From Candidatus Poribacteria bacterium (lineage in GTDB: Bacteria > Poribacteria > WGA-4E > WGA-3G), in contig OZ240248.1 of the NCBI GenBank assembly GCA_965198235.1, forward strand, positions 5,024,001 to 5,088,000: 64,000 bases of DNA, read 5' to 3'. The position numbers were made by a program, and so were the translations under genes. The notes below the pieces were generated by a model. The model was not told the origin of the DNA. It was given only the letters and a program-made list of their open reading frames with translations, and did no database searches. Positions 20,067 through 23,171 of the stretch are shown piece after piece (position 1 is the stretch's first letter; every line of letters starts with the position of its first letter).

Positions 20067-21746
20067 ATGAAAATCTTAACCGTTGGGTTTCTTATTCTGG
20101 TAATGATGAGTGGAGTGCTGAATGCCGATAACCACTCAACAACTCACAACAAAATTACACTGAACCTTGACGGGACCCCAGAAGTATCTGTCAAAGGCTT
20201 CATTGCTCCGATTGAATATACACAATACAATTTCCATGTGGAGTGGGATGAACTGGCAAATCTGCGGGTTGCTGAGCCGGAGAAGCGGTATTCTGCATCG
20301 GTTTTCCATGCCTTTCTGCCCTCCGAAGCGGTTTCTGTAGGCGATCTCTGGCAGATTGAGGAAGAGGGGGTGCTAGAATTACTAAGGCAACTGAACCCCA
20401 ATCCGAGGCTGGACCTGGACATCAATATGGGAGATTCCCGTGGACTGTGGGCATGTCTGCGCGCCTACAATGATGAATTTGCTAAGATTGTGTTCCGCAT
20501 CCATGCAGAATTCGTCTTAAACGATGGTCGGTTCACTCCATCTCAGTTTACAGGACATCTTGTTATTGATCGAATTAGAGAGAGGATTGCCTCCTTCAAG
20601 ATGTATGTTCCTGAAGGTGTACTGAATTTTGATGTCGGGCGAAACAGTATCGGAGCTATAGATGTCGGTTTTTGCCCGCAAATGGAACTCCGTGCTAAGG
20701 CACCAGAAGTGGTATCGGACATCAAGTTTGCGGAGTCCATCACCCAAGAAGCGGCTGAGCGGGTGCTGATACTGCGTTTCTACAGATCGCAACAAATCAA
20801 CTGGGTGTCTCTGGAAGAAGCGTTAGAGACGGCACCGGCGCAACGAAAACCTGTTCATGTTGTTTCGATAGATGGACCGCTTGCGGATGAGTCGTGCTGA
20901 GGGAGTGGCAAAACTCTGAGGGCAGTTGTCCTCTCTGACGATAAAATTATAGAGTTCTTGAACGAAAACTTTGTTAACACATGGGTGCCGAATTCTGAAT
21001 TAGGGCGCGTCTCCAGTTTGCGGGAGCCGATTGACAAGAGACGCGAGCGCGAAGGTAAAACGTTTGACACAAGCCACGCCTTGGCACAAGCAATTATAAA
21101 GGGTTGGAAAGAGGGGTCGCCTGTGGATTGTCTGGTTATCTCGCCGGAGTTTGAAGTGATGGGTAGGCAACCTGTCAACGAAATCGGGTGGTCCAACGGA
21201 GTAGCATTTTACATGAATTTCCTCCAAGAGTCCTTAGAGGGGAAACTACCAGGGTTCGGTGAGGCCGCCTCGAAACCTTTACCGAAACCTAGTTCAGAGT
21301 CTTACTCTGGATTAGGTGCTGTTGTGCCAGAGGATTTAAAAGTTATACTCACCCGTGAAAAGCCCCAGCAGGAAGTTCTCAGCATTTTCCGGACACCAGA
21401 ATCCGGCTATCAAGATTATACTGTCGTTGAAATTGATACGACAGCGTTTAAAGGCGGCGGTATGCTTACTATTGATATCTTAGTAGGAAGTGCTGAATCC
21501 AAAGGCTCGTTCGATCTTTATGATGGTGACACTGAACTTCCAACACAAGGTATGCCTCGCGGCGCGCTTACCTCTGCGTGGGATGTTCCTCCCGGTAAAA
21601 GAGGAACAATCAAGTATCGTTTTGACCGGGGTAAAGTTTTTAAGTTAGGAGCTACAGGCAGTTGGTTCAGTAAGGAAGGGAACATCAACGCTTTTCTCGC
21701 TACAATTTCTGTAGCCCCTATGGCGAAAGAAAGTAACGAACATTAA
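20067..21746 (+). CDS. Selenoprotein N-like protein 2, secreted (TGA 20898-20900 read as Sec; about 559 aa)
   Basis: ORFs 20061..20900 and 20958..21746 are in frame and join as PLADESC-[TGA]-GSGKTLRAVVLSDDKIIEFLNENFVNTW. Shared SelN blocks FRIHAEF, FTPSQFTGHL, PQMEL. Signal peptide. AAGGAG RBS favours ATG 20067. Confidence 0.88.
20918..20933 (+). promoter_or_regulatory. Putative bacterial SECIS hairpin
   Basis: GAGGGC-(AGTT loop)-GTCCTC starting 18 nt after the TGA. Confidence 0.6.
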
Positions 21747-21842
21747 CGCCACTTCCATGCTAATGTGTCTCCCAAAAAAGTCTGCCCAGCATGGAATATT
21801 ATTATAGCGTCTAATGAAGTTATCCCGTTCTGGAGGTAACGA

Positions 21843-23171
21843 ATGAAAAACGACGATGTCGAATTAATTCAAGGCAGTCTTATAGGCGATGAAAAAGCCT
21901 TTGCGAAGTTGGTGAGAAAATACCAGAAGCAGGTTCACGCACTCGCGTGGCGGAAAGTAGGCGATTTCCACATCGCTGAAGAGATTACGCAGGATACCTT
22001 TTTAAGGGTTTATAAGAAACTGGCAACGCTGAAGGATCCGCATCGTTTTGCAGGATGGCTTTATAGAATCGCTGCACGCCAATGCCATGCCTGGCTCAGA
22101 AAGAAACGGATGCAAACGCAATCGCTTGAAGACACAGACATCGAACTGATAGAGGGAGGGACGTATTCTCAATACATTGCCGAGGAGCAGGAGAAAGCTG
22201 CGGTAGATGCGCAACGCGATATTGTCCAAAGGTTACTCGCTCGGCTGCAGGAAAGTGAACGCACTGTCGTCACACTCCACTACTTCGGGGAGATGACCTG
22301 TGAAGAGATTAGCCGATTTTTGGGTGTATCAGAGAGTACCGTTAAGAGTCGGCTCCGCCGTGCGCGGCACCGCTTAAAGAAGGCGGAACCCATGATCCGA
22401 GAGGCACTGGAAGGCTTCCAAGTTAGGGCGAATCTCACCGAGAATATCATGCAAGAAATTGCCCGTATCAAACCTACTCCACCGCCCAGTGGTAAACCGT
22501 TTGTGCCGTGGACAATTGCCGCCTCAACCCTTGTTCTCGTTGTGATGGCACTTGGAGCAAGTAGTCAGTACTTAACACGTTTCCAACAACCTTACAATTT
22601 TGATGCCACATCCGAAATGACAGTAGAACTCATTGACACGCCTATGGTTCTGAATCTCGCATCGAAACCGGATGTGCGGACCCAAGCCGGTAAATCTGTG
22701 ACACCGAGTAAAGGCGACGGACATACCCCGAGCACAAATCAATCAGAATATGTGCCGAGATTTCTTTCTGCCCAAGCAAAGAACGTCGTGCTTGATAATA
22801 AACAGCCTTCGCAGGATGTTTTGAGCATTTTCCAAACACCGGCGGCGGGCTATCAAGACTACACTGTCATTGAGATTGATACGACGGCATTTAAAGATGG
22901 CGGCACGGTCACTATCGACCTTTGGATTGGGAGCGCAGAGGCTGCTGGTGCTTTCATTCTGTTTACAAGCGACAGCGAAATCCCCACAGACAGTATGCCT
23001 AAGGTTATACTCACCTCAGCATCAGGAATCATACCCGGTAAATCAGGGCGGATCACGCACCGTTTTGACGAAGGCACACGCTTTAAGTTAGGAGCTACCG
23101 GTAATTCGTTCAGTGGGGAAGGGAAGGTCAATTCCTTTCTCGCAAAAATCTCTATAGACGCTACGTTGTGA
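21843..23171 (+). CDS. ECF sigma factor fused to a transmembrane helix and a C-terminal extracytoplasmic domain
   Basis: Region 2 (AEEITQDTFL, FAGWLYRIA), region 4 (EEISRFLGVSESTVKSRLRRAR), hydrophobic WTIAASTLVLVVMALG; C-terminal domain shared with the SelN-like proteins. Confidence 0.9.
   Translation: MKNDDVELIQGSLIGDEKAFAKLVRKYQKQVHALAWRKVGDFHIAEEITQDTFLRVYKKLATLKDPHRFAGWLYRIAARQCHAWLRKKRMQTQSLEDTDIELIEGGTYSQYIAEEQEKAAVDAQRDIVQRLLARLQESERTVVTLHYFGEMTCEEISRFLGVSESTVKSRLRRARHRLKKAEPMIREALEGFQVRANLTENIMQEIARIKPTPPPSGKPFVPWTIAASTLVLVVMALGASSQYLTRFQQPYNFDATSEMTVELIDTPMVLNLASKPDVRTQAGKSVTPSKGDGHTPSTNQSEYVPRFLSAQAKNVVLDNKQPSQDVLSIFQTPAAGYQDYTVIEIDTTAFKDGGTVTIDLWIGSAEAAGAFILFTSDSEIPTDSMPKVILTSASGIIPGKSGRITHRFDEGTRFKLGATGNSFSGEGKVNSFLAKISIDATL

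Follow-up and report, generated by a model that had tools for sequence, protein, structure and literature searches.

Why should a sigma factor carry, on the far side of the membrane, the same domain as the selenoprotein encoded beside it? The question is raised by a locus within a 64,000-nucleotide (nt) stretch of Candidatus Poribacteria DNA (contig OZ240248.1, positions 5,024,001 to 5,088,000; hereafter the window), in which the gene for an extracytoplasmic function (ECF) sigma factor of 442 amino acids (aa) follows the gene for a selenoprotein, here called SelN-like 2. The homologues and related loci also carry the source name Candidatus Poribacteria, and the host genome, metagenome-assembled and from an uncultivated sponge symbiont, comprises 5.17 Mb at 96.3% completeness. 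A preliminary description of the locus proposed a one-component trans-envelope system in which sensor and selenoenzyme bind the same ligand, or each other, through a shared domain, coupling redox or selenium status to transcription. The reading that we favour, and regard as reasonably probable, is that a one-component, membrane-anchored ECF sigma factor drives the surrounding cluster of SelN-like, LamG, and PD40 genes and is released by proteolysis. Within this framework, the sigma factor is probably the dedicated regulator of the neighbouring SelN-like genes.

The sigma factor and its parts are laid out as follows (ORF, open reading frame; AF2, AlphaFold2; pLDDT, predicted local distance difference test score; TM, transmembrane).

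21843 to 23171, + strand: membrane-anchored ECF sigma factor, 442 aa, a class 1 sigma-SelN-C fusion (ORF, Pfam, TIGR02937, homologues)
21909 to 22382, + strand: sigma2 (aa 23-89) and sigma4 (aa 126-180) regions (Pfam; AF2 helices 4-91 and 108-191, pLDDT 70-89)
22434 to 22460, + strand: short post-sigma4 helix LTENIMQEI, aa 198-206, cytoplasmic (AF2; motif NLTENIMRQV kept in TM-bearing paralogues)
22497 to 22565, + strand: single TM helix, aa 219-241, N-in/C-out (hydropathy, flank charges, AF2 helix 227-239)
22566 to 22775, + strand: periplasmic juxtamembrane linker, aa 242-311, predicted disordered and a candidate site-1 cleavage region (paralogue alignment)
22785 to 23156, + strand: sensor domain, an eight-strand beta-jelly-roll, aa 315-438 (BLASTP; AF2 pLDDT 91.3)

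Pfam identifies Sigma70_r2 (aa 23-89, 57.6 bits), Sigma70_r4_2 (aa 126-178, 58.1 bits), and Sigma70_ECF (32.5 bits) in the N-terminal part, and neither sigma3 nor sigma1 (Pfam r3, r1) matches at E ≤ 1. Sigma2 together with sigma4, in a protein lacking sigma3 and sigma1, is the composition of an ECF (group IV) sigma factor. The NCBIfam model TIGR02937 (sigma70-ECF) scores 98.8 bits against a cut-off of 42.9, and 115 of the 120 listed homologues are 440-458 aa long with all four sigma70 Pfam families. From aa 208 to 442, Pfam returns nothing at E ≤ 1. This part begins with the only TM segment, aa 219-241 (Kyte-Doolittle 19-mer mean 1.98), which has three K/R and no D/E on its N-terminal side and one K/R and three D/E on its C-terminal side. 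Because the N flank is positive and the C flank net acidic, the sigma core is placed in the cytoplasm and the tail outside. The preliminary description had allowed that the predicted helix might not be real; by hydropathy it is, and it is conserved in 12 of 16 aligned paralogues.

The full-length AF2 model (32-row alignment, mean pLDDT 64) places sigma2 at aa 4-91, sigma4 at aa 108-191, the short helix at aa 198-206, and the TM helix at aa 227-239. The stretch from aa 216 to 311, which covers the TM region and an unstructured linker, falls below a pLDDT of 50 and leads to a beta-sandwich at aa 313-440. Across the sigma family, the linker reads QYLxRFQxPYxF(D/E)AxSExT-VE(L/I)ID-P-L-SKP-VR-Q in the paralogue alignment. 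In the roughly 37 aa between sigma4 and the TM helix (aa 181-218), Pfam finds no zf-HC2, RskA, or FecR anti-sigma domain at E ≤ 1, and this segment holds zero Cys and zero His. A class-1 orthologue at another locus (L045:6392-7717) has an in-frame stop, and is either a pseudogene or the product of an assembly error.

What the outer domain is related to becomes apparent from the adjoining gene and from a second SelN-like gene further upstream.

20061 to 21746, + strand: SelN-like 2 selenoprotein, 561 aa, U280, motif DESCUGSG (alternative ATG start at 20067; translation with TGA = U)
21342 to 21713, + strand: C-terminal jelly-roll domain of SelN-like 2, aa 428-551 (BLASTP)
13526 to 15067, + strand: SelN-like 1 selenoprotein, 513 aa, U268, motif DESCUANG (domain copy at 14708-15046)

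Sigma aa 315-438 align with SelN-like 2 aa 428-551 at 74 of 124 positions (60% identity) with 0 gaps (BLASTP, E 5e-47), and the sigma tail aligns with SelN-like 1 at 48 of 114 positions (42%) with one gap (E 2e-21). The near-gapless match to SelN-like 2 and the more distant one to SelN-like 1, both noticed in the preliminary description, are therefore borne out by these values, and the strings it quoted are present in the translations. The homology between the sigma factor and the SelN-like proteins is real and goes well past what chance would give. Neither Pfam nor NCBIfam has a model for the shared domain, in keeping with the earlier remark that this beta-rich domain was unrecognised; modelled alone with AF2, the domain forms eight strands arranged as a jelly roll (pLDDT 91.3). 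Its closest fold neighbour by VIA is PliG (4dzg; Z 11.6, root mean square deviation 2.6, 105 aligned residues), followed by Tk-SP and GOLD (Z 10-11) and the ColH collagen-binding domain (Z 9.2), with identities of 5-14% and smoothly decaying scores. Foldseek with VIA-align gives PliG, the SID1 ectodomain, the Tk-SP C-terminal jelly roll, p24 GOLD, and PPC/collagen-binding domains as neighbours (5-17% identity), with no family ahead of the others.

The genome encodes five copies of the domain, one in the sigma factor and four in SelN-like selenoproteins. A profile built from these five, with matches clustered at 50% identity, finds 341 clusters at E ≤ 0.001 and 212 at E ≤ 1e-10. Pfam partners among the best 150 representatives include Peptidase_M56/BlaR1 (nine), caspase (five), and Lcl_C (two), in addition to single cases such as TPR, TIR, Peptidase_S9 with PD40, TonB_C, CsgG, and sigma70. 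From its sequence partners, the domain appears to be a mobile and moderately promiscuous extracytoplasmic module that serves as the outer part of BlaR1-type transducers in other bacteria. Some SelN-like proteins have two copies in tandem (P0004 and P0063); both entries are C-terminal halves of SelN-like proteins, and one copy has a 19-aa insert, as does the copy at locus L005.

Where the sigma copy came from is indicated by a FastTree phylogeny of 188 domain sequences; its alignment has just 129 columns, and many of its forks are unresolved. The 23 class-1 sigma domains all group together in a single clade (SH-like support 98) that lies within the SelN-like domains of Poribacteria, and because of this position, the sigma outer domain is taken to derive from a SelN-like tail. 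Mean column identity within the sigma domains is 76%, and they share conserved substitutions relative to the SelN-like copies (AFILF vs. SFDLF and SASG vs. SAWD). Judged from these sequences, the outer domain is an old copy of the neighbouring SelN-like C-terminal domain that has since been kept under selection.

That the neighbouring genes encode selenoproteins follows from three observations. The window holds two split ORF pairs, and reading TGA as selenocysteine (Sec) joins each into one protein; the two products are 35% identical over 542 columns (BLASTP, E 9e-93). TGA occupies the Sec position in 78 of 78 redox-motif instances from 78 related loci. Moreover, the genome encodes tRNA-SeC with an adjoining selB gene (348 bits), and also selA (592 bits). 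A conserved UGA, a frame that continues beyond it, and the Sec machinery are thus all present. The in-frame TGA of SelN-like 1 lies at 14327-14329, and the corresponding features in SelN-like 2 are listed here.

20898 to 20900, + strand: in-frame TGA read as selenocysteine (translation, related loci, Sec machinery)
20899 to 20933, + strand: possible stem resembling a selenocysteine insertion sequence (SECIS), adjoining or including the UGA (not statistically established)

Single-sequence folds of the possible SECIS score no better than shuffles (z-scores -0.4 to -1.1). In the alifold consensus of 69 unique sequences, positions 2-6 are paired with 32-36 and compensatory changes are few, and an Rfam scan of the window returned an SRP RNA and six tRNAs only, and no SECIS. 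SelN-like 2 has a signal peptide (aa 1-23, by hydropathy), which places it in the same periplasm as the sigma sensor. The feature of SelN that was seen in these proteins is the SCUG or SCUA Sec motif. Thioredoxin-like Pfam matches in these proteins remain below threshold (11.8-17.1 bits vs. 27), no EF-hand is found in them by Pfam, NCBIfam has no family for them, a PDB sequence search with SelN-like 2 gives 0 matches at E ≤ 0.01, and the ESM Atlas gives no usable match to its N-terminal table-11 ORF searched alone. In the best 120 of 179 SelN-like homologues, the source, where named, is Candidatus Poribacteria.

Three side observations concern this protein family. SelN-like 1 differs from SelN-like 2 in having SCUA and not SCUG, no signal peptide, and no upstream promoter motif. 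A second gene of the SelN-like 1 type lies at about 1.266 Mb of the same contig (locus L003), next to a gene whose product has an N-terminus that we take, by sequence, to be that of a PSCyt/DUF1549-type cytochrome protein. Three full-length SelN-like entries (P0272, P0279, and P0127) have G or W exactly at the TGA position of the loci; such entries probably stem from gene calling with a genetic code in which TGA means Gly or Trp, rather than from true Sec-free forms.

Is the association of the two genes more than local chance? The orthologue survey covered species representatives and gave 78 loci with 50 full-length sigma orthologues, 48 of them with enough upstream sequence. In 47 of these 48 class-1 loci, a SelN-like gene ends at most 800 nt upstream on the same strand, even where the sigma protein is as low as 63% identical to the query; the exception (L023) has a gap of 1358 nt. 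A second, phylum-wide search of 176 genomes found the domain in 127, including 108 of 111 in family f1, 8 of 11 in f2, 10 of 29 in f3, and 0 of 24 in the other eight families. A full-length class-1 match is present in at least 68 genomes, counted among the matches listed. This search also revealed a second, diverged sigma class, 50-54% identical to class 1 (41-46% over the tail). Here the order of the genes is the opposite: in 8 of the 8 loci fetched, a SelN-like gene comes immediately after the class-2 sigma gene, in the same orientation. The adjacency of sigma factor and SelN-like gene is thus conserved in related genomes, in both classes, a point that the preliminary description had named as a check. 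It had also named a promiscuous domain combined with unconserved adjacency as the outcome that would speak against it; promiscuity is seen in the 341 clusters, and the pairing holds nonetheless. A DUF3352 gene follows the sigma gene at its 3′ side in many related loci, as it does here.

The pairing extends to a promoter motif. Upstream of adjacent SelN-like genes, the consensus is AGAATTAGGCAACCGTTTTGyC..CCGCGTCAyTATATAT, and a conserved ECF-type promoter, GCAACCGTTT-N11-CGCGTCA, precedes SelN-like, LamG, and PD40 genes. In the window, the motifs and the genes behind them are arranged as follows.

19611 to 19639, + strand: promoter motif GGCAACCGTTT-N11-CGCGTCA, 5′ of SelN-like 2, 421 nt before its start
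18569 to 18597, + strand: the same core, GGCAACCGTTT-N11-CGCGTCA, 5′ of the LamG gene at 18670-19491
16494 to 16522, + strand: the same core, GGCAACCGTTT-N11-CGCGTCA, 5′ of the LamG gene at 16556-17416 and then the PD40 gene at 17460-18482
23511 to 23538, + strand: variant motif GCAACCCTTT-N11-TGCGTCA (1+1 mismatches), 5′ of the DUF3352 gene at 23615-25492
16556 to 17416: LamG gene (Pfam), followed by the PD40 gene at 17460-18482
18670 to 19491: second LamG gene (Pfam)
23615 to 25492, + strand: DUF3352 gene (Pfam), 3′ of the sigma gene

The core GGCAACCGTTT-N11-CGCGTCA has three exact matches in the window against 0 expected from 100 shuffles. An exhaustive mismatch scan of the 5.17-Mb genome gives only four exact cores, three of them in this cluster. 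The fourth (G000:C1:3226238-3226265, - strand) lies 5′ of a gene for a 412-aa secreted propeller-repeat protein, the repeats of which resemble Reg_prop by eye; a BNR/Ycf48-like propeller ORF of at least 1268 aa is also located there. On the sigma strand of the 78 loci, we counted 72 motif instances, half of which (36) stand before SelN-like genes (median 135 nt away), and 20 lie 72-76 nt before paralogous sigma genes; the remainder precede PD40 (eight) or LamG (seven) genes, with one unassigned. The flanks of the motif vary by subtype (TATATAT vs. AAGGT). Since the 20 instances before paralogous sigma genes show the layout of autoregulated ECF factors, the sigma factors of this family most likely read the CGCGTCA-type core, and the presence of such a promoter before the SelN-like genes would fit their regulation by the sigma factor. 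In four of the eight class-2 loci, the motif is found 90-190 nt before the sigma-SelN pair.

For the sigma gene itself, the 96-nt gap behind SelN-like 2 contains no predicted sigma70-like promoter or terminator, and read-through into it is therefore plausible. One sponge metatranscriptome library contains contigs that agree, apart from 0-1 differences, with SelN-like 2 (185 and 220 nt) and with the sigma gene (304 nt); these contigs are short, cover the genes in part, show no start sites, strand, or levels, and may include DNA carry-over.

The spacer between the motif and SelN-like 2 (19640-20060) looks like an inserted dispersed repeat. Contigs from related strains skip 330-369 nt of it (joints 19682>20052 and 19715>20046, run X5), and in two runs the bin 19810-20043 is covered at 10-100 times the depth of the bins next to it. 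Seven other places in the genome resemble pieces of the spacer at 69-100% identity, where the 100% match comprises 26 nt only.

To what extent is this arrangement particular to SelN? A tblastn search with sigma aa 1-300 hits 20 genomic places, including the gene itself. Among 16 aligned paralogues, 12 share the post-sigma4 helix, the TM helix, and the periplasmic motif QYLxRFQxPYSFEAxSEPTIEIIDxPIVLDxxSKPxVRNQ, and four lack the TM helix. By Pfam, the outer domains of the paralogues are mostly Sortilin/BNR/DUF6242 propellers, or else LRR with GHL15, Peptidase_M61_N, or none recognised. Because the sigma factor has many paralogues with other outer domains, its architecture is not peculiar to SelN; about 12 of the family, the present one included, are membrane-anchored and differ in what they expose. 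A conserved unstructured linker common to such differing sensors is what a shared protease site would look like. Sharing of the outer domain with a neighbouring gene is clear in the sigma factor studied here; one paralogue shares LRR repeats with its neighbour (39-43% identity), two TM-less HTH_20 paralogues also share a domain (67-69%), and one more does so weakly (25-29%). In 7 of the other 11 paralogues examined, no such sharing was found, and a general rule of this kind for the family is ruled out.

The expanded family occupies 16 places in the genome (loci L085-L100), and related genomes often have tandem arrays with members about 3 kb apart. One of these places, L089 (G000:C1:1026058-1027320, 421 aa), matches the sigma family over aa 216-288 only (61%), has WD40 repeats after that and no sigma domains, and may be a sensor-only or decoy relative.

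Fusions of ECF sigma factors to membrane-bound extensions are already known, and what sets this one apart is an outer domain copied from the neighbouring selenoprotein. The nearest relative in design is IutY of Pseudomonas putida, an ECF243 sigma/anti-sigma hybrid that is activated by regulated proteolysis via Prc and RseP (PMC8999054). In IutY, as here, a TM segment connects an ECF sigma core with a C-terminal part in the periplasm. IutY differs in its anti-sigma part, which is of the FecR type, and in operating together with a TonB-dependent receptor, whereas Pfam identifies neither FecR nor ZAS in the Poribacteria protein, which has instead a jelly roll from the neighbouring selenoprotein. 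PMC8999054 also describes SCO4117 of group ECF52 (zinc finger, TM helix, proline-rich region, and carbohydrate-binding domain) and the similar groups ECF48 and ECF53 of Actinobacteria, for which release by proteolysis is predicted. Their C-terminal extensions, with 1-2 TM helices and an extracytoplasmic part, resemble the present one; they differ in having a ZAS-like zinc finger before the TM helix, which is absent here, and they belong to another phylum. A domain shared with the target enzyme is not among the features reported for ECF52, ECF48, or ECF53 in the passages of PMC8999054 considered. Since it lacks a recognisable anti-sigma domain, the sigma factor is not filed in the sigma/anti-sigma fusion groups; by analogy, it may be a variant that works like these fusions, and not a member of ECF243, ECF52, ECF48, or ECF53. 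"Poribacteria" occurs 0 times in the main text of the ECF re-classification paper PMC7826278, and the family may already belong to a numbered ECF group. A literature search returned nothing on SelN-like proteins of bacteria, or on selenoproteins, ECF sigma factors, or sigma fusions of Poribacteria.

With respect to sensor logic, the closest parallel is BlaR1, of the BlaR1/MecR1 signal transducers. Its outer sensor shares homology with enzymes whose ligand is also that of the induced gene product, and the domain under study is itself fused behind M56 BlaR1-type transducers in 9 of the 150 representatives. BlaR1 differs in that it is a zinc protease of the membrane and acts by inactivating a repressor distinct from itself; here, the membrane protein is the transcription factor. 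On the enzyme side, the C-terminal jelly-roll domain is not known from animal SelN. Eukaryotic SELENON has a Sec-containing SCUG redox motif (PMC12839072), comparable to DESCUGSG of SelN-like 2, and both the eukaryotic and the bacterial proteins are exported or luminal.

Collectively, these findings can be combined into a model. A cytoplasmic sigma2-sigma4 core is tethered by one TM helix, from which the conserved, disordered linker leads to a periplasmic jelly-roll sensor. The switch is most likely regulated proteolysis of the IutY type: whether the juxtamembrane linker is cut would depend on the state of the outer domain, after which a site-2 protease would free the sigma core, and the genome encodes a Peptidase_M50 site-2 protease (228.6 bits). 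Once free, the core would drive the ECF-type promoters (GCAACCGTTT-N11-CGCGTCA) of the SelN-like 2, LamG, and PD40 genes, and the sigma gene would be transcribed by read-through from the SelN-like 2 promoter, resulting in positive feedback. What the outer domain senses is most likely the periplasmic ligand or partner that the SelN-like tail domain also recognises; none of the observations points to selenium or redox status, the signal proposed in the preliminary description. Of the one-component trans-envelope system suggested in the preliminary description, the anatomy, two independent conserved pairings, and the promoter motif are in place, while we infer the identity of the sigma factor that reads the promoter, its proteolytic release, and the nature of the signal.

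Several observations weigh against this model. None of the 72 motif instances lies directly before a class-1 sigma gene, and 16 of the 50 orthologous loci lack a motif within 900 nt upstream of the SelN-like start. Many orthologous loci have a gap of 370-690 nt before the sigma gene, with a hairpin and a TATAAT-like box, and in such wide-gap loci the sigma gene may be expressed on its own. The promoters could be read by another of the about 12-17 paralogues, the sigma domains of which are 50-66% identical; the tie between sigma factor and motif is drawn from sequence. SelN-like 1, having neither signal peptide nor motif, shows that the scheme misses some SelN-like genes, and members of the sigma family do not as a rule share their outer domain with an adjacent gene. 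Nor does Pfam find, in the roughly 37 aa before the TM helix, an anti-sigma domain that would keep the tethered sigma factor inactive. Finally, the modelled fold of the outer domain is a common jelly roll without a diagnostic ligand site.

Could the two proteins instead bind each other? In this scenario, the sigma outer domain docks onto the SelN-like 2 tail in the periplasm, and how stable the tethered sigma factor is depends on how much free selenoprotein there is, or on its state. The sensor would then gauge its own product and not a ligand from outside. We consider this unlikely, even though the domains are homologous, share a compartment, and are encoded side by side, and even though the tandem copies in P0004 and P0063 fit domains that are able to pack together. 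Complex prediction gave a median score of 0.39 (runs 0.39, 0.52, and 0.35; contact agreement 100%, partner pLDDT at least 77) compared with 0.00 for the best of three controls. In the calibration of this method, 116 of 157 solved complexes passed the mark, as did 2 of 215 mismatched pairs, and scores of at most 0.60 comprised only 18 of the 157 solved complexes together with both passing mismatches, such that most passes in this range are wrong unless binding is likely beforehand. Moreover, the prediction returned no interface, and models of this type easily lay homologous beta-sandwiches side by side. The sigma-specific substitutions (AFILF/SFDLF and SASG/SAWD) may mean that the specificity has diverged. 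The part of the preliminary description in which sensor and selenoenzyme bind each other thus has weak support from the model, and the complex prediction does not discriminate between a shared ligand and direct docking.

The two genes might also be neighbours by descent only, the outcome of a local duplication of the adjacent 3′ end, with the pairing reflecting synteny, the sigma factor controlling other genes, and the domain being generic. The promiscuity of the domain (341 clusters, with M56, caspase, TIR, TPR, S9 peptidase, TonB_C, and CsgG partners), the many outer domains taken up by the sigma scaffold, and the lack of a motif directly before the class-1 sigma gene all agree with such a history. 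It is nevertheless quite improbable in view of a pairing that holds in 47 of 48 loci with sigma identities down to 63%, and that recurs in opposite order in all eight loci of the second class, of the family promoter core before 36 SelN-like genes, and of a sigma domain that is well conserved at 76% mean column identity. Alternatively, the sigma factor is never released and acts from the membrane like ToxR or CadC, its outer domain modulating oligomerisation or conformation. The short segment of about 37 aa between sigma4 and the TM helix, without a recognisable anti-sigma domain, and the adjacency of target genes that encode exported proteins would suit this mode of action. We regard it as very improbable: the conserved, disordered juxtamembrane segment is as expected of a protease substrate, the genome encodes a site-2 protease, and IutY, the sole experimentally characterised fusion of the kind (PMC8999054), is freed by Prc and RseP. 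Regulated release of a membrane-anchored sigma factor that drives the SelN-like cluster remains the reading that we favour.

Two further features of the window are recorded here. A gene for a 1265-aa protein with no Pfam or NCBIfam family (25628-29425, - strand) lies beyond the DUF3352 gene, and the sigma gene is flanked by genes of the 1265-aa type and the DUF3352 type both here and in many related loci. A large bacterial signal recognition particle (SRP) RNA is followed by six tRNA genes (48469-50136, - strand), of which four encode tRNA-Ser with differing anticodons.

What would such a system mean for SelN-type proteins? Loss of SelN causes a human muscle disease, and SelN substrates are poorly defined. 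The bacterial SCUG proteins carry a genetic handle in the form of a conserved partner sigma factor, a defined promoter motif, and a few exported proteins under the same control. In terms of signal transduction, the locus illustrates a sigma scaffold of core, TM helix, and linker that accepts differing outer domains, with one clear case in which the outer domain is borrowed from the regulated enzyme, a case open to study in a heterologous host. It is possible, if doubtful, that the outer domain acts as a stand-in for the targeting domain of the selenoenzyme, sampling the tail's partner or substrate, or the tail itself, and turning its occupancy into transcription of the cluster. If so, this would be the first dedicated transcriptional circuit for an enzyme of the SelN family. 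The design would then be a general one in Poribacteria, with some twelve tethered sigma factors in each genome, all of them bearing swapped-in sensors, and the co-regulated LamG, PD40, and DUF3352 proteins would point to the substrate class of SelN-type oxidoreductases.

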